From a phage, in the sequence record PX994957.1: a DNA stretch of 64,000 nucleotides. One strand, 5' to 3'. Every line of letters begins with the position of its first letter. Position 1 is the stretch's first letter. The notes below the pieces were generated by a model. The model was not told the DNA's origin, ran no database searches, and saw only the letters and a program-made list of their open reading frames with translations. Both the position numbers and the translations under genes were made by a program. Positions 1,845 to 38,501 of this stretch are shown in pieces.

Positions 1845-2108
1845 TTATTTCATATTATTGAAATATTCTTCTGCGATTTCATCGTTATCATGGTAAACTT
1901 TAGAAGACAGTTTAACATAACTTTCAGCAGTGAACATGTTAATCACAACCTTTACAGTATACCACTGACCGTCTTCATTACCCATTACTGCATAAGTTTC
2001 AAACATCGGATGGTCAGGACCGATAACTTTAATATCATTCACTGTACGACCGAAATCTTCTGAAACACATTTCATAAAGAAGTTGAACAGCTCACCGTAA
2101 TTATCCAT
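1845..2108 (-). CDS. hypothetical protein (start moved to internal Met with GGAG SD; track ORF runs to 2171)
   Basis: ATG at 2106-2108 has GGAG 7 nt upstream; the track start at 2171 lies inside the promoter spacer. Confidence 0.45.
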   Translation of the reverse strand: MDNYGELFNFFMKCVSEDFGRTVNDIKVIGPDHPMFETYAVMGNEDGQWYTVKVVINMFTAESYVKLSSKVYHDNDEIAEEYFNNMK

Positions 2109-2151
2109 TTCATTCTCCAAGTTGTTTTCTGTATCAGTAGTTGATAGTTGT

Positions 2152-2181
2152 ATAGTACCATGGAAGGACAAGGATGTAAAT
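2152..2181 (-). promoter_or_regulatory. T4-type early promoter variant (ATTTAC-N18-TACTAT)
   Basis: minus ATTTAC (2176-2181) N18 TACTAT (2152-2157); flanking sequence resembles the copy at 6160-6189. Confidence 0.45.
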
Positions 2182-2310
2182 AGTTTTGTGAAAAAATTTT
2201 TAAAAAGTTTTGGGGAATTCTAGGGCAGGGAGGGGAAATCAAAGGATAGGATAATATATTATAAAGGGTAGAAACTAAATGATGTCTAGAGAGGCCTGGA
2301 AAGGCCTAGA

Positions 2311-2345
2311 TACCAAAAAGCCCCAACCTTTCGGCTAGGGCTAAG
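2311..2345 (-). terminator. hairpin plus U-tract terminator; 35-bp direct repeat copy 1
   Basis: taccaaaaagccccaacctttcggctagggctaag; on minus strand hairpin followed by TTTTT. Confidence 0.5.
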
Positions 2346-2349
2346 AATG

Positions 2350-2823
2350 TTATTTTATTTGTTTAGCAGACCAAATGCGGTCTTTAATAATTTTTTGGAT
2401 GTCTTCAACATACTCAAGAGAGTGAGCATGTGGGTTATCTTTGAAACTATGAGCTCGCGCAAGTTTCTGGCCTTCGGTCTTAATTATCAAAAGTTCTTTA
2501 AGAATTGCTTCATACCTAGAGATAATTCCTTTAGCAATATTTTTTTCTTGTGCTGCTTTAGGGTCAGCCTTAGGAGCAGGTTTACCTGAAGCCTTTGCAA
2601 AAGCAGCTCCAGTAGCAACTAAACTTTTCCAGGCCATACTAACTGCATTTCCCGTAAATCCTTCCGCTTTCATGTCGCGTGCGAACTGGAATCGCGATTC
2701 ATCAGAAGCATCTTTATAAGAATATTTACCCGCTGCAATGGCTGCTTTTGCGACAGCTTGAATTTCGGTGCTAGATGCTTCATTTAACACCACTTCATTT
2801 AAAAATTGAGTATATGATTTCAT
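2350..2823 (-). CDS. candidate packaged internal head protein (capsid-targeting-sequence-like N-terminus)
   Basis: 157 aa; N-terminus MKSYTQFLNE resembles T4 IP capsid targeting sequence MKTYQEFIAE with L-x-E cleavage context; late promoter upstream. Confidence 0.5.
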   Translation of the reverse strand: MKSYTQFLNEVVLNEASSTEIQAVAKAAIAAGKYSYKDASDESRFQFARDMKAEGFTGNAVSMAWKSLVATGAAFAKASGKPAPKADPKAAQEKNIAKGIISRYEAILKELLIIKTEGQKLARAHSFKDNPHAHSLEYVEDIQKIIKDRIWSAKQIK

Positions 2824-2863
2824 CTTATTTCCTGTTTTAATTCGTGGATTTAATATACTACTA

Positions 2864-2871
2864 TATTTATA
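2864..2871 (-). promoter_or_regulatory. T4 late promoter TATAAATA
   Basis: minus-strand TATAAATA about 40 nt upstream of ORF 2350..2823. Confidence 0.5.
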
Positions 2872-2904
2872 CCAAAAAGCCCCAACCTTTCGGTCGGGGC
2901 TAAG
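2870..2904 (-). terminator. hairpin plus U-tract terminator; 35-bp direct repeat copy 2
   Basis: taccaaaaagccccaacctttcggtcggggctaag; 6-bp GC stem agcccc/ggggct, A-run on plus = U-run on minus. Confidence 0.55.
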
Positions 2905-3210
2905 CCTTGCGGCAACCTTGTCGGGGTTCCACCTGCTAAGGCAAGTGTTTGTACGAAACGCCGGGATTCGAACCCGGTTATTAAGCAGTTGACGCTACTC
3001 AATATTTTTAAAAGGCCATATCTCGACCATATCCGAACGTTCCGTCAAAAACGCTACTCGGCTTACGGCAAAGATATTTCCTCGAATCGATAATTCGGTG
3101 CGCCGTTTCTGCTGTGATGTAAGAGGGCATCAATAAACGCAAAGATTATTAACGCAATTCCTTACTCAGGGAACATCAGTCCGACGACTTACCGGTAGCG
3201 ACCCGGTTTC
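2905..3210 (-). ncRNA. structured non-coding region, candidate stable small RNA(s) analogous to T4 rnaC/rnaD
   Basis: about 300 bp with no ORF, GC-richer than flanks, tRNA-like T-arm motif CCGGGTTCGAATCCCGG on minus strand (about 2961-2977), terminator at 3-prime side. Confidence 0.35.
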
Positions 3211-3561
3211 TTAATATTCTTTTAAAGCATCAATCTGTTTACGGCGTTCACGCCATAAATCAATTGCTTCATACGCGGATTCAACATTTCGAATTGGACG
3301 GCATTTATATAAAGATTTGTGATTTTGATATTGCGTAGATAACGGAATTTTATCTAAAAGGTCTTTACGTTCAAAGTATTCGTAACCATCTAAGCCAAAT
3401 GAACGATTTTTGAGAAATTGCCAATGACCAAATTCGTTTTGAATATAAATATAATCCGCATGTTGATAAAGTAAATTAATTTCACGAAATGAGATATGTT
3501 TTTCATATTCATTGAAGTAAAATGTTAAATCATGAACTACTAAATAAACATTACCTTTCAT
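3211..3561 (-). CDS. hypothetical protein
   Basis: 116 aa ORF immediately downstream of tRNA-Arg. Confidence 0.45.
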   Translation of the reverse strand: MKGNVYLVVHDLTFYFNEYEKHISFREINLLYQHADYIYIQNEFGHWQFLKNRSFGLDGYEYFERKDLLDKIPLSTQYQNHKSLYKCRPIRNVESAYEAIDLWRERRKQIDALKEY

Positions 3562-3659: not shown

Positions 3660-3735
3660 TGGGGTGACCGATGGGAGTCGAACCCATGACTACGAGAATC
3701 ACAATCTCGAGTTCTACCAACTGAACTACGGCCAC
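3660..3735 (-). tRNA. tRNA-His-like (anticodon GUG), no encoded G-1
   Basis: cloverleaf: acceptor GTGGCCG/CGGTCAC, discriminator C73, anticodon loop TTGTGAT, T-loop TTCGACT, CCA encoded; nucleotide -1 is U. Confidence 0.6.
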
Positions 3736-3849
3736 ATTAATACCTACTCCAACAATCAAGATGTCTTCACACGAAATTAAGAGAAGAGTGATCAGTTCAA
3801 CCCCTATAATCGCGTCAAGTAGATATTAATGTGACAGTTGTCACAAATT

Positions 3850-4281: not shown

Positions 4282-4932
4282 TTATATATTGTTAATTTGA
4301 TTTAGAATTCTTTTTGCTTGAGTATGACTTACGCCAATATGCTTAGCATATTTAGATAATTCACCACGCTTAGAAAAATCATATAATTTAGAAATTTCTA
4401 TTCTTCTTTTTCTTTCATCCGCAGAAACTTTTGCTTCGTTTGCTTTTGCTATTTTACGTTTAGCTTCTTGAGAATGAGTTTTACCAGCAAATCCATTCTT
4501 CATTAATCCATTTGAAGACCATCCTTTTAATTTTCCGTTAGAATGTGCCTTTTTAACACCCAATGAAATTAATTCGCGTTGCTGATCTGTCATAGGATAA
4601 TTATTTATATGGTCCCATCCACCTTCACCTCCAAGTTTTAAATTATACACATCTGGTCTATTTAAAAACTCTTCTGTGACAATATTTTTCTCAGCTTCAA
4701 GCATAGATTCTTTATCATCAAAATACTCTAATATTTCTTTAGAAAAATTTTCTATACCATATTTATCTTGGGCTCTTTTTAATAATTTACCAGAACCCAT
4801 ATATCCATCATCTAAATTTTCGGTAGAATGCACACCAATATAAATTTTATTATTAATTTTATTTGTTATTTTATAAAGATAAAAATGCATATCAGTCCCT
4901 AATAAAGAACTGAGCGTCTCACGACGAGTCAT
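4282..4932 (-). CDS. segB: GIY-YIG homing endonuclease (SegB-like) within the tRNA cluster
   Basis: 216 aa; N-terminal GIY-YIG motifs (YLYKITNKINNKIYIGV ... YMGSG); basic C-terminal DNA-binding-like tail; true start may be internal Met at 4890. Confidence 0.8.
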   Translation of the reverse strand: MTRRETLSSLLGTDMHFYLYKITNKINNKIYIGVHSTENLDDGYMGSGKLLKRAQDKYGIENFSKEILEYFDDKESMLEAEKNIVTEEFLNRPDVYNLKLGGEGGWDHINNYPMTDQQRELISLGVKKAHSNGKLKGWSSNGLMKNGFAGKTHSQEAKRKIAKANEAKVSADERKRRIEISKLYDFSKRGELSKYAKHIGVSHTQAKRILNQINNI

Positions 4933-6131: not shown

Positions 6132-6159
6132 TTTATTCTCCTCAGTAGTTGATAGGGTA

Positions 6160-6189
6160 ATAGTATCACTACTAAAACCCCGTGTAAAC
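6160..6189 (-). promoter_or_regulatory. T4-type early promoter with stem-loop (PeSL-like module)
   Basis: minus GTTTAC (6184-6189) N18 TACTAT (6160-6165); inverted repeat agtagt/actact; 32-nt core gtgtaaacaactttgtgaaattattttaaatc shared with copy at 6513-6544. Confidence 0.55.
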
Positions 6190-6201
6190 AACTTTGTGAA
6201 A

Positions 6202-6459
6202 TTATTTTAAATCTTCTAATCGTTTCTTCATCTTAGAACCATTTTTAGCGATTTCTCCTGCGTCAGAGCATAATGCTAAAAGTGCTTTAACTTTAGTTTG
6301 GTCTCCTTTAAAAGACGAAGGATCGACTGCAGCAGCAAGTTCTTTAATACGAGAGAAAAGACGCTCAGCTTCAGCTAAAGCCATTCCAAGCTTTACTTCC
6401 ATACCATGAGAAGATTCAGTGATAATAGTTTCTGTAGCAAACTCTTTATAAGTTTTCAT
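6202..6459 (-). CDS. candidate internal head protein (IPI-locus analogue) with capsid-targeting-sequence-like N-terminus
   Basis: 85 aa; N-terminus MKTYKEFATETIITE closely resembles T4 CTS MKTYQEFIAE; sits where ipI lies in T4 (between tRNAs and 57B). Confidence 0.55.
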   Translation of the reverse strand: MKTYKEFATETIITESSHGMEVKLGMALAEAERLFSRIKELAAAVDPSSFKGDQTKVKALLALCSDAGEIAKNGSKMKKRLEDLK

Positions 6460-6490
6460 TTTATTTTTCCTAATTAATTTTGATGAGGTA

Positions 6491-6520
6491 ATAGTATCAC
6501 TACCTCATCAGTGTGTAAAC
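6491..6520 (-). promoter_or_regulatory. T4-type early promoter with stem-loop (PeSL-like module)
   Basis: minus GTTTAC (6515-6520) N18 TACTAT (6491-6496); perfect 10-bp inverted repeat tgatgaggta/tacctcatca at 6481-6510. Confidence 0.55.
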
Positions 6521-6532
6521 AACTTTGTGAAA

Positions 6533-7229
<697 letters not shown>

Positions 7230-35014: not shown

Positions 35015-35439
35015 TGATTCTAATCCCTGAAACTCATGAATTAGTTCTCGAGAATGTCGAAGCACTTATTCCTGAAGCACAGGGTCGCTTTGACGAGTTG
35101 TCTTCTGCTTTAAATAAAGACGATATAAATAAAATTATCGAGAATATGCTTGATGATGAAACTGATTTAGCGGTTGCATTAGCTTCTATTAATGAAAATA
35201 TGCCGTTAAATGAATTCATCGTTAAACATGTTTCTGCCCGTGGTGAAATTACTCGCACTAAAGATCGCAAAACCCGCGAACGTAATGCATTTCAAACTAC
35301 CGGGTTGTCTAAAGCAAAACGTAGACAAATTGCTCGTAAAGCTACCAAAACGAAGATTGCCAATCCAGCAGGTCAATCTCGTGCTCAGCGTAAGCGTAAA
35401 AAAGCTCTTAAACGCCGTAAAGCATTAGGATTAAGCTAA
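35014..35439 (+). CDS. 68: gp68 prohead core protein
   Basis: 141 aa, basic C-terminus, synteny. Confidence 0.85.
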
Positions 35440-36077
35440 TGAATGAACCCCAATTACTAATTGAAACTTGGGGTCAACCTGGCGAAATTATTGATGGCGT
35501 ACCAATGCTTGAATCTCATGATGGAAAAGACTTAGGTTTAAAACCTGGTTTATACATCGAAGGAATATTCATGCAAGCAGAAGTCGTCAATAGAAATAAA
35601 CGTCTTTATCCAAAACGTATATTAGAAAAAGCGGTAAAAGACTATATTAATGAGCAAGTTTTAACTAAACAAGCTCTCGGAGAATTAAATCATCCTCCAC
35701 GCGCTAATGTTGACCCGATGCAAGCCGCTATCATTATAGAAGATATGTGGTGGAAAGGAAATGACGTATACGGACGAGCTCGTGTTATTGAAGGTGACCA
35801 TGGTCCTGGAGATAAATTAGCAGCTAATATTCGTGCCGGATGGATTCCAGGAGTTTCTTCTCGTGGATTAGGTTCATTGACTGACACAAATAAAGGTTAT
35901 CGTATCGTAAACGAAGGATTCAAATTAACTGTAGGTGTTGATGCAGTATGGGGTCCAAGTGCTCCAGATGCATGGGTAACTCCTAAGGAAATTACAGAAT
36001 CACAGACGGCGGAAGCCGATACAAGTGCCGATGACGCCTATATGGCTCTCGCAGAGGCCATGAAAAAAGCGTTATAA
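35439..36077 (+). CDS. 21: gp21 prohead core protease
   Basis: 212 aa, synteny between 68 and 22. Confidence 0.9.
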   Translation: MNEPQLLIETWGQPGEIIDGVPMLESHDGKDLGLKPGLYIEGIFMQAEVVNRNKRLYPKRILEKAVKDYINEQVLTKQALGELNHPPRANVDPMQAAIIIEDMWWKGNDVYGRARVIEGDHGPGDKLAANIRAGWIPGVSSRGLGSLTDTNKGYRIVNEGFKLTVGVDAVWGPSAPDAWVTPKEITESQTAEADTSADDAYMALAEAMKKAL

Positions 36078-36107: not shown

Positions 36108-36917
36108 ATGCTTAAAGAACAACTGATTGCCGAAGCGCAGAAAATTGATGCTTCCGTTGCTCTTGATAGTATTTTCGAATCAGTTAATATTTCTCCGGAA
36201 GCAAAAGAAACTTTCGGCACTGTATTCGAAGCTACCGTCAAGCAGCACGCCGTTAAATTAGCTGAATCTCATATCGCTAAAATTGCTGAAAAAGCAGAAG
36301 AAGAAGTAGAAAAAAATAAAGAAGAAGCAGAAGAAAAAGCTGAGAAGAAAATCGCTGAGCAAGCTTCTAAATTCCTTGACCATCTTGCAAAAGAATGGCT
36401 CACTGAAAATAAATTAGCAGTAGATAAAGGTATCAAAGCCGAACTGTTTGAATCCATGCTTGGTGGATTGAAAGAGCTCTTCGTTGAACACAACGTTGTT
36501 GTTCCAGAAGAATCAGTTGATGTTGTAGCTGAAATGGAAGAAGAACTGCAAGAACATAAAGAAGAATCAGCTCGTCTGTTCGAAGAACTCAATAAGCGTG
36601 ACGCATATATCAATTATGTGCAGCGTGAAGTGGCATTGAGCGAAAGTACTAAAGATCTGACTGAGTCTCAAAAAGAAAAAGTCTCTGCTCTGGTCGAAGG
36701 TATTGATTATTCAGATGCATTCTCAAGCAAATTGAGTGCCATCGTAGAAATGGTGAAGAAATCTAATAAAGATGAAAGCACTATTACTGAGAGTATAAAT
36801 ACTCCTGATACTGAAGCAGCCGGACTGAATTTCGTCACTGAAGCTGTAGAAGATAAATCTGCACAAGGTGCAGAAGATATTGTAAGTGTATATGCGAAAG
36901 TCGCATCTCGTTTCTAA
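36108..36917 (+). CDS. 22: gp22 prohead core scaffold
   Basis: 269 aa, Glu/Lys-rich helical protein. Confidence 0.9.
   Translation: MLKEQLIAEAQKIDASVALDSIFESVNISPEAKETFGTVFEATVKQHAVKLAESHIAKIAEKAEEEVEKNKEEAEEKAEKKIAEQASKFLDHLAKEWLTENKLAVDKGIKAELFESMLGGLKELFVEHNVVVPEESVDVVAEMEEELQEHKEESARLFEELNKRDAYINYVQREVALSESTKDLTESQKEKVSALVEGIDYSDAFSSKLSAIVEMVKKSNKDESTITESINTPDTEAAGLNFVTEAVEDKSAQGAEDIVSVYAKVASRF
36794..36801 (+). promoter_or_regulatory. T4 late promoter TATAAATA inside 3-prime end of gene 22
   Basis: TATAAATA about 135 nt upstream of gene 23. Confidence 0.55.
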
Positions 36918-36935: not shown

Positions 36936-38501
36936 ATGACTATCAAAACTAAAGCTGAACTTTTGAACAAATGGAAGCCATTACTGGAAGGTGAAGGTTT
37001 ACCGGAAATTGCTAATAGCAAACAAGCGATTATCGCTAAAATCTTTGAAAACCAGGAAAAAGATTTCCAGACAGCTCCGGAATATAAAGACGAAAAAATC
37101 GCCCAGGCATTTGGTTCTTTCTTAACAGAAGCTGAAATCGGTGGTGACCACGGTTACAACGCTACTAACATTGCTGCTGGTCAGACTTCTGGCGCAGTAA
37201 CTCAGATTGGCCCAGCTGTTATGGGTATGGTACGTCGTGCTATTCCTAACCTGATTGCTTTCGATATTTGCGGTGTTCAGCCGATGAATAGCCCGACTGG
37301 CCAGGTATTCGCACTGCGTGCAGTATATGGTAAAGACCCAATCGCTGCTGATGCTAAAGAAGCATTCCACCCAATGTATGGTCCAGATGCAATGTTCTCT
37401 GGTCAGGGTGCTGCTAAGAAATTCCCAGCTCTGGCTGCTAGCACACAAACCAAAGTAGGTGATATCTATACTCACTTCTTCCAGGAAACTGGTACTGTAT
37501 ATCTGCAAGCTTCTGCTCAAGTAACAATTAGTTCTACTGCAGATGATGCAGCTAAATTAGATGCTGAAATTAAGAAACAAATGGAAGCTGGCGCATTGGT
37601 AGAAATCGCTGAAGGTATGGCTACTTCTATCGCTGAACTTCAGGAAGGTTTCAACGGTTCTACCGATAACCCATGGAATGAAATGGGCTTCCGTATCGAT
37701 AAACAAGTTATCGAAGCTAAATCTCGTCAGCTGAAAGCTGCTTACTCTATCGAATTAGCACAAGACCTCCGCGCTGTTCACGGTATGGATGCTGATGCTG
37801 AACTGTCTGGTATTCTGGCTACCGAAATCATGTTGGAAATCAACCGTGAAGTTGTTGATTGGATTAACTACTCAGCTCAGGTTGGTAAATCTGGTATGAC
37901 CCTGACTCCGGGTTCTAAAGCTGGTGTATTTGACTTCCAGGATCCGATTGATATTCGTGGTGCTCGCTGGGCGGGTGAATCCTTTAAAGCTCTGTTGTTC
38001 CAGATTGACAAAGAAGCAGTTGAAATTGCTCGTCAGACCGGTCGTGGTGAAGGTAACTTCATTATCGCTTCCCGTAACGTAGTTAACGTTCTGGCTTCAG
38101 TTGATACTGGCATTTCTTATGCTGCACAGGGTCTGGCGACCGGCTTTAACACTGATACTACCAAGTCAGTATTTGCTGGTGTTCTGGGTGGTAAATACCG
38201 TGTATATATCGACCAGTATGCTAAACAGGATTATTTCACTGTAGGTTATAAAGGTCCGAACGAAATGGATGCTGGTATTTACTACGCTCCATATGTAGCT
38301 CTGACTCCACTACGTGGTTCTGATCCGAAGAACTTCCAACCAGTAATGGGATTCAAAACTCGTTACGGTATCGGTATCAACCCATTTGCAGAATCCGCTG
38401 CTCAGGCTCCGGCTTCTCGCATTCAGAGTGGTATGCCTTCTATCCTGAACAGCCTTGGTAAGAACGCTTACTTCCGCCGTGTATATGTTAAAGGTATCTA
38501 A
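36936..38501 (+). CDS. 23: gp23 major capsid protein
   Basis: 521 aa; sequence recognised as T4 gp23 (MTIKTKAELLNKWKPLLEGEG...). Confidence 0.97.
   Translation: MTIKTKAELLNKWKPLLEGEGLPEIANSKQAIIAKIFENQEKDFQTAPEYKDEKIAQAFGSFLTEAEIGGDHGYNATNIAAGQTSGAVTQIGPAVMGMVRRAIPNLIAFDICGVQPMNSPTGQVFALRAVYGKDPIAADAKEAFHPMYGPDAMFSGQGAAKKFPALAASTQTKVGDIYTHFFQETGTVYLQASAQVTISSTADDAAKLDAEIKKQMEAGALVEIAEGMATSIAELQEGFNGSTDNPWNEMGFRIDKQVIEAKSRQLKAAYSIELAQDLRAVHGMDADAELSGILATEIMLEINREVVDWINYSAQVGKSGMTLTPGSKAGVFDFQDPIDIRGARWAGESFKALLFQIDKEAVEIARQTGRGEGNFIIASRNVVNVLASVDTGISYAAQGLATGFNTDTTKSVFAGVLGGKYRVYIDQYAKQDYFTVGYKGPNEMDAGIYYAPYVALTPLRGSDPKNFQPVMGFKTRYGIGINPFAESAAQAPASRIQSGMPSILNSLGKNAYFRRVYVKGI

Follow-up and report, generated by a model that had tools for sequence, protein, structure and literature searches.

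A candidate late-gene cassette for a head-packaged internal protein, set between repeated terminator hairpins in the rnaC/e.8 slot of T4-like phages

Introduction

Repoila et al. are said to have described in 1994 repeated regulatory stem-loops that flank the polymorphic internal-protein genes of T-even phages. Shuffling of modules mediated by promoter early stem-loop (PeSL) elements is the generalization given by Arbiol (2010) and Comeau (2014) (PMC2839356, PMC4122927), and one criterion for such elements is the detection by inverse PCR of excised mini-circles arising from recombination between the flanking copies (PMC2839356). In T4, entry of the internal proteins IPI-III into the scaffolding core is directed by the capsid targeting sequence MKTYQEFIAE (PMC8442874), which does the same for foreign proteins to which it has been fused and is removed afterwards by cleavage (PMC8442874, PMC3012670). 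Each of the proteins Ip1, Ip2 and Ip3 disables a GmrSD type IV restriction enzyme of its own (PMC12373910). Here we analyse 64,000 nucleotides from a Tequatrovirus, that is, a T4-like phage (record PX994957.1; this whole stretch is called the window), in which a 157-amino acid (AA) open reading frame (ORF), given the working name ipX, lies between gene e.8 and rnaC, the latter standing at the end of the tRNA cluster. We consider it likely that ipX and its flanking hairpins form a self-contained cassette, expressed late, for a T4-type internal protein that is packaged in the head and injected, and that this cassette fills a slot of variable content between e.8 and the rnaC terminator.

Results

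Predicted terminator hairpins and a late promoter consensus delimit ipX

The ipX gene is bracketed by two direct repeats of 36 nt that are 559 nt apart and identical at 33 of the 36 positions (92%). A search for the 33-nt core of the repeat that allowed up to three mismatches found these two sites and no others in the 64 kb; in 100 dinucleotide-preserving shuffles it found none. Both copies were called terminator-like on the minus strand (2901..2878 and 2342..2319), each with a 10-bp GC-rich stem, a GAAA loop and a TTTTT tail and with folding energies of -20.3 and -18.3 kcal/mol (z about -3.4); the features of an intrinsic terminator, namely a GC-rich stem, a short loop and a U-run on the transcribed strand, are present in both. 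The positions at which the copies differ (GACC, AGCC, TAGCC) form G-U wobble pairs in minus-strand RNA and are mismatched on the other strand. Because the variant positions stay paired only in minus-strand RNA, the hairpins appear to have been selected as RNA structures in the orientation of ipX. Since ipX sits between rnaC and e.8, the upstream copy is the predicted intrinsic terminator of the tRNA/rnaD/rnaC transcription unit, and the downstream copy is that predicted for ipX itself, ahead of the e.8 early promoter. The similarity between the copies reaches past the stem-loop into TTAGCC and a TTTTTGGTAT tail.

Two observations on hairpins may be added. Directly after the downstream terminator, at 2288-2312 on the minus strand, lies another hairpin, TCTAGGCCTTTCCAGGCCTCTCTAGA, which is also found in T4 and RB14 with a few changes. 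The hairpin core GCCCCGGCCGAAAGGTTGGGGCTTTTT, moreover, is met again in about 20 IMG/VR contigs (at most about 38 kb long) from an unrelated group of phages, always after '...gtgttaggtgtgaaatt', and for this reason it is better regarded as a widely used strong terminator than as one specific to T4-like phages.

The upstream repeat shares its last 3 nt with a T4-type late promoter consensus, TATAAATA, and the fusion of this consensus with the terminator tail reads TTTTTGGTATAAATA. There are 26 copies of TATAAATA in the window where 9.2 would be expected, several of them lying shortly before the ORFs identified as portal gp20 and scaffold gp22, and no sigma-70-like promoter was called on the minus strand in the ipX leader or in the repeat. 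The motif holds the equivalent position in KP01, SP21535, CrRp10 and IMG/VR contigs, and the layout of a terminator followed by TATAAATA is also seen in distant homologs and before unrelated cargo genes in the slot. By these signs the ipX promoter would be of the T4 late type, positioned as for a late gene. A plus-strand ORF at 2347..2589 was considered and rejected as unsupported, being antisense to the conserved ipX.

The original prediction, made from the letters of the window alone, had placed here a minus-strand ORF of 157 AA starting MKSYTQFLNE, with a late promoter about 40 nt upstream and with flanking repeats at 2311-2345 and 2870-2904 that fold as terminator hairpins. The ORF is present as described at 2350..2823, the promoter is an exact TATAAATA on the minus strand at that distance from the ATG, and both repeats fold as intrinsic terminators on the ipX strand; the coordinates of the repeats needed correction by no more than 1 nt (Table 1).

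Table 1. Location of the ipX cassette, its elements and related genes in the window
Feature	Position	Strand	Remarks
rnaC trailer, rnaC (about 2952-3090) and rnaD (about 3096-3215)	2905..3215	-	coordinates transferred from RB68 and T4 annotations
Direct repeat, upstream copy	2869..2904	-	hairpin 2878-2901, GAAA loop, T-run 2873-2877; copy kept by T4
Late promoter consensus TATAAATA	2864-2871	-	exact match; 40 nt before the ipX ATG
Shine-Dalgarno-like AGGAAA	2828..2833	-	read from the sequence; 4 nt (2824-2827) ahead of the ATG
ipX	2350..2823	-	157-AA ORF, PHROG 2280; corresponds to RB68_138, ar1_137 and fD1 g140
Capsid-targeting-like propeptide MKSYTQFLNE-VVLNE, codons 1-15	2779..2823	-	two L-N-E motifs, the second ending at the family-invariant Glu15, then Ala-Ser
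Direct repeat, downstream copy	2310..2345	-	hairpin 2319-2342; begins 4 nt past the ipX stop codon
e.8 early-type promoter TTTACA-17-TACTAT	2152-2180	-	promoter call
Gene e.8	1845-2108 (context 1845..2203)	-	own early-type promoter and upstream AT-rich element
Prohead protease gp21 (Peptidase_S77)	35439..36077	+	E 1.5e-111
Scaffold gp22	36108-36917	+	E 3.1e-90
Capsid protein gp23	36936-38501	+	E 3.6e-121

The ipX N-terminus resembles a capsid targeting sequence

The predicted protein starts MKSYTQFLNEVVLNEASS, and its first 10 residues agree with those of the T4 targeting sequence at 5 positions and are conservative at 3 others. The pattern MK[ST]Y..F[LIVA].E matches 2 of the 680 Met-initiated peptides of at least 30 AA in the window, these being ipX and the internal-protein gene at 6202..6459. 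Within the otherwise divergent ipX family the N-terminus is the most conserved part, and M-x-x-[YF]-x-x-F-[LV]...E is kept even in members that are at most 38-42% identical to the window protein or similar to it at profile level only. Upon alignment the pattern proved common to T4 IPI-III, PST IpIV-VI and all members of the ipX family (Table 2). LNE is found at residues 8-10 and again at 13-15. All sequences in the family alignment share Glu15, with Ala, Gln, Gly or Ser as the next residue, and the Glu at the putative cut site follows the L/I/M/F-x-E motif of prohead protease sites. The resemblance to an internal-protein targeting sequence, also part of the original prediction, is therefore borne out, both in the match to MKTYQEFIAE and in its ending at a conserved prohead-protease-type motif. 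The window protein is longer than its SP21535 and JK45 orthologs by five residues, VVLNE (2779-2793, codons 11-15), directly behind the first LNE; these duplicate the putative protease motif and extend the propeptide from 10 to 15 AA, resembling the longer propeptides of IpV and T4 IPI.

Table 2. N-termini of internal proteins and ipX family members up to the cut mark of the alignment
Protein	N-terminus	Residue after the cut mark
T4 IPII / IPIII	MKTYQEFIAE	A
PST IpIV	MKTYQEFITE	A
PST IpVI	MKTFKEFIAE	S
IpV (window 6202..6459)	MKTYKEFATETIITE	S
ipX, window	MKSYTQFLNEVVLNE	A
ipX, SP21535	MKSYAQFLNE	A
ipX, JK45	MKSYAEFLTE	Q
KP01	MKFKEFLAE	A
RB14 gene	MKTYAEFLTE	A

The window contains the genes for the prohead protease, scaffold and capsid protein as well as the gp20 portal ORF, and gp21 is the enzyme expected to cut the putative ipX propeptide. 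Like the T4 internal proteins, ipX is basic, with a computed pI of 9.5 (9.6 for the mature form). A near-identical ortholog in Yersinia phage fD1, g140 (Gp140), was found in a virion preparation and is entered as 'PPAP' (particle-associated) in an unspecific proteome list. The fPS-2/65/90 paper contains no proteome, and the ip genes go unmentioned in the T4 time-resolved omics paper. As to the genome of fD1 itself (L011 3269-4239), denV is directly followed by the lysozyme gene e, with no gene at the classical ipII/ipIII position, and a 157-AA 'head protein' (g129) is encoded upstream of denV.

Relatives differ by whole cassettes joined within the hairpin

Over a stretch of 1.45 kb around the cassette, identity with the Escherichia phages AndreasVesalius, wV7, AR1, RB51 and RB68 amounts to 95-98%, and this stretch has matches in 773 phage records. 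The annotations of RB68 and AR1 place the gene between rnaC and e.8, and the orthologs RB68_138 and ar1_137 are annotated as 'hypothetical'. T4 keeps the rnaC and e.8 flanks, with one hairpin copy and no ipX, a difference of 559 bp. Its single hairpin is identical to the upstream copy of the window, and its sequence runs on towards e.8 like that beside the downstream copy of the window and towards rnaC like that beside the upstream one; because the two flanks match those of the two window copies, T4 differs by exactly ipX and one repeat. The slot of PST is empty as well. Presence or absence among relatives of exactly the repeat-bounded interval, which had been suggested as a check, is thus what we find, T4 and PST having one repeat and no gene.

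With a 401-nt T4 junction as query, the corresponding spans in relatives measure about 401, 957, 1085 or 1635 nt. The 1085-nt class, represented by RB14, contains a 187-AA gene (RB14ncORF136c, here ipY) that starts MKTYAEFLTE and is preceded by the same hairpin; its 3' stem differs and the CTTTTTGGTATCTAGG tail is shared. Phages of the 1635-nt class (OES_C-2, PYps5T, HP3.1) match the query in three pieces, and CrRp10, which is arranged in the same way, carries ipX and then the 187-AA gene in tandem with a third identical hairpin between them. The same order, again with a third hairpin copy in between, is seen in two IMG/VR contigs. In RB69 the slot holds a frameshifted 187-AA gene with an ipY identity of 97.6%. 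This identity was considered as a sign of horizontal transfer specific to the cassette, an idea that we rejected because high identity there is not confined to the cassette, the rnaC trailer/terminator and the e.8 start of RB69 being nearly the same as in Tequatrovirus loci. The RB69 gene (L010 1801-2363) is split by the frameshift into RB69ORF149c and RB69ORF148c, which probably reflects either loss of a working gene (a pseudogene) or an error in sequencing.

Altogether, the slot has at least four states of occupancy. Across 20 loci we found three left flanks (rnaC, the ipX end and the 187-AA gene end) and three right flanks (two gene leaders and the e.8 region), joined around the hairpin in six combinations, and every junction lies inside the hairpin or its tail. 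In JK45 both hairpin copies carry the lineage-specific arm variant CCCCTTCC, while in other phages, e.g. SP21535 compared with L045, hairpin variants are swapped between the upstream and downstream copies. Variants that are shared within a genome, together with variants swapped between positions, point to exchange between hairpin copies.

The slot is also used by other genes. Behind the rnaC terminator and with TATAAATA, IMG/VR contigs carry a 126-AA protein starting MYTVNEFLAETEIITE, and in a VR25-like lineage (L016, 2706795408) the rnaC terminator and TATAAATA are followed by a 184-AA predicted membrane protein (MKLLKYLSWILL...) with its own terminator. The latter has no targeting motif, and its precise empty site is found in the sister contigs L015 and L028; from this membrane protein and the matching empty sites we conclude that the slot accepts late-promoter cargo that lacks a targeting sequence. 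In a further contig, L039, a short remnant of the membrane-protein gene follows ipX.

As expected for a variable gene, ipX is missing from close relatives (T4, PST and others) and truncated or frameshifted in some lineages, and where it occurs, it is found in one copy and at one place per genome record, always in the rnaC/e.8 slot. In the JK45 group it is about 73% identical and in the same slot, as it is in Klebsiella phage KP01, where the N-terminal half alone is conserved. Because ipX always occurs once and in this slot, including in the JK45 group and KP01, the occupied state is probably old and the empty state of T4 a deletion. Mobility by way of the repeats, as originally proposed, is upheld in the sense of gain, loss or swap at a fixed site and not in the sense of transposition, since ipX was found in one slot only. 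A transposable element was rejected, there being no inverted terminal repeats, no target duplications and one place per genome.

Family and predicted structure

Both ipX and ipY belong to phrog_2280 in PHROGs, where the function is given as 'unknown function'. In BLASTP their similarity is confined to the first 10 residues, and for this reason we do not claim that they are paralogs despite the shared PHROG. Among 1.84 billion representative proteins, no more than 13 clusters were recovered by a profile search, the source-traceable members of which come from T4-like phages. The AlphaFold2 model of ipX (pLDDT 77) is all-helical, with six helices predicted to form an N-terminal helical bundle and a long C-terminal helical hairpin connected by a Lys/Ala/Pro-rich linker.

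Genome neighbourhood

The cassette adjoins rnaC and rnaD, the stable small RNAs closing the tRNA cluster; Rfam has no family matching these RNAs or the cassette hairpins. The cluster, with 10 tRNAs here, differs from that of T4 by a 116-AA ORF between rnaD and tRNA-Arg, within 3211-3561, and by an additional tRNA-His at 3660-3735, and it is split by a gene for a 216-AA GIY-YIG SegB/SegD-like homing endonuclease at 4282-4932. The 114-nt gap between tRNA-His and tRNA-Asn holds a 24-nt inverted repeat (3725-3748 / 3818-3841).

Elsewhere in the window, direct repeats of 69 nt that are 86% identical (6149-6217 and 6480-6548) bracket the 85-AA gene at 6202..6459, which is the IpV of PST. Each holds a promoter of the early type (TTTACA-17-TACTAT) in which a stem-loop is embedded, and is a classical Repoila-type element. 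The same architecture is found upstream of T4 ipI, ipII and ipIII, in the case of ipI with the same sequence, and a shorter partial copy precedes e.8 at 2175-2203.

Discussion

The anatomy of the locus and its states in relatives support, as far as sequence can test it, the original prediction of a self-contained promoter-gene-terminator cassette. We propose that early and middle transcription of the tRNA/rnaD/rnaC unit would halt at the upstream hairpin and that, late in infection, gp55-RNA polymerase would initiate at the TATAAATA fused to the terminator tail and read ipX alone. The late transcript would end at the second hairpin copy, by which e.8 and the genes beyond would be insulated. 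The MKSYTQFLNE(VVLNE) peptide would send ipX into the prohead scaffolding core, gp21 would cut the peptide off after Glu15 (or Glu10), and the mature protein, basic, helical and of about 15 kDa, would stay in the head with the DNA and enter the next host with it. Homologous recombination within the terminators, either within one genome or between co-infecting relatives, would delete, insert or swap cassettes, leaving the neighbours undisturbed and giving rise to the empty, X, Y and X+Y states. Exchange of whole cassettes would be possible because both cassette ends are the same terminator of about 35 nt.

What the injected protein might do is a matter for more tentative consideration. By analogy with T4 Ip1, Ip2 and Ip3, which act on GmrSD enzymes, the most likely role of ipX would be that of an injected counter-defence protein that blocks host defence, a suggestion that we regard as plausible and would not put higher than that. 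No specific target is supported, since the mature domain has no match in Pfam, NCBIfam, PADLOC, PDB or BFVD. The ipX family occurs in about 500 sequenced T4-like phages, T4 not being one of them, and is described as hypothetical only, which makes it a candidate for anti-defence screening; related phages are known to carry many further internal proteins. All named database entries sampled for ipX and the RB14 gene read 'hypothetical', and an earlier mention in the older literature is possible. Comeau 2007 is reportedly the source for 'more than 30' internal-protein variants, among which ipX may already be listed.

Several points weigh against our interpretation. For the window phage we infer late-only transcription, cleavage, packaging and injection, as we do the anti-defence role and the recombination mechanism. 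The fD1 list of particle-associated proteins discriminates poorly, because it covers 113-137 of 277 proteins and includes clearly non-structural ones (DenV, lysozyme, NudE and thymidine kinase are among the entries). Neither ipX nor ipY has a match in Pfam, NCBIfam or PADLOC, and the ipX model has no significant neighbour in PDB or BFVD outside its own family. Published work, furthermore, places internal-protein genes at two other loci and nowhere else. It could accordingly be argued that ipX is an ordinary late accessory protein that is not packaged, and that its N-terminal likeness to MKTYQEFIAE, identical at just half of the 10 positions, is a by-product of 5'-end recombination among neighbouring accessory genes with shared translation-initiation regions. 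However, the motif is kept at the protein level in members with low or profile-level similarity, where it always ends at a Glu after hydrophobic-x, usually with Ala, Gly or Ser next, and the second of the two ORFs bearing it in 64 kb is the recognized internal protein IpV. In addition, ipX is basic in the manner of the T4 proteins, has a late promoter consensus and has an ortholog that is listed for fD1 virions, and we consider the non-packaged alternative to be unlikely.

The role of the hairpins in gene exchange is subject to a similar caveat. The similarity of the two repeat copies may be due in part to selection for a strong terminator rather than to shared descent, as the core terminates in the unrelated contigs of about 38 kb, and in KP01, the one distant relative looked at, where the terminator-TATAAATA junction is kept, the downstream hairpin is of a different, non-repeated sequence, which means that the repeat is not required for ipX. 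Hence the two hairpins could be independently maintained terminators without a role in gene gain and loss, the indels having arisen by illegitimate recombination or through a nearby homing endonuclease, such as the SegB-like gene in the tRNA cluster, 1.4 kb from the cassette. A generic terminator would not, however, account for similarity that continues beyond the stem-loop into the TTAGCC and TTTTTGGTAT tail, nor for the placement of all junctions in 20 loci inside the hairpin or tail with six flank combinations. The sharing of arm variants by copies within a genome (CCCCTTCC in JK45) and their swapping between the upstream and downstream positions in SP21535 and L045 likewise argue for exchange, and we see little probability in independent maintenance. 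We thus prefer a cassette for a packaged internal protein that is exchanged at its terminators.

In comparison with known systems, ipX shares with the T4-type internal proteins an N-terminal targeting peptide of about 10-19 AA (MKT[YF].EF...) that ends in a hydrophobic-x-Glu cleavage motif; the proteins are small, basic and non-essential, with strong polymorphism among closely related phages, and the genome with ipX also encodes gp21, gp22 and gp23. It differs from them in a mature domain unrelated to any of theirs and in its place between rnaC and e.8 rather than at the 57B-tRNA or denV-e loci. Whereas T4 ipI, ipII and ipIII have an early-type GTTTACA...TACTAT promoter with an embedded stem-loop upstream, none precedes ipX, which has an exact late promoter instead.

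The lambdoid morons are likewise single accessory genes with their own promoter and terminator between conserved units (a comparison made in PMC2839356). Morons are regarded as insertions that arose by illegitimate recombination and lack conserved flanks, and their expression is often from the prophage; the ipX unit, in contrast, belongs to a lytic phage, is predicted to be expressed late and has homologous repeats at the points of exchange. An integron-like attC system was rejected for lack of an integrase and because the hairpin is no more than an ordinary terminator. On a much more speculative note, and as a long shot, the rnaC slot could be a third T-even internal-protein locus, not recognized before, in the form of a small cassette array; the GC-rich GCCC...GGGC hairpin would then itself direct recombination as a preferred site, beyond what passive homology provides, in a loosely integron-like manner without an evident integrase, and the PHROG 2280 proteins (ipX, ipY) could enter the host by injection and inhibit a defence for which no phage counter-measure has been described so far.

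The closest parallel is provided by the PeSL cassettes of RB49/phi1 and the T-even internal-protein loci, in which a non-essential ORF likewise lies between repeated regulatory stem-loops, a close relative has a single element in place of the ORF, and the unit is transcriptionally insulated. That relatives differ by exactly the ORF and one repeat, as in classical cassettes, is seen here in T4 and the window. PeSL elements combine a strong sigma-70-like early promoter with a stem-loop, and those of the internal-protein loci combine T4 early promoters with weak AT-rich stems, the stems of the two kinds being AT-rich or polyG/polyC. The flanking repeat of the ipX cassette does not join an early promoter to a stem-loop in this classical way; it is a GC-rich intrinsic terminator, and the late TATAAATA lies on the cargo side and has 3 nt in common with the repeat. 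The principle of shuffling internal-protein genes at their flanks is already known and will not surprise a T4 specialist. What sets the ipX cassette apart is the third slot between rnaC and e.8, the GC-rich terminators as flanks and a predicted late-only promoter owned by the cargo. The locus offers a clean natural example of accessory-gene exchange at regulatory hairpins, and it extends the idea of such hairpins as seams from early-promoter elements to units built of a late promoter and a terminator.

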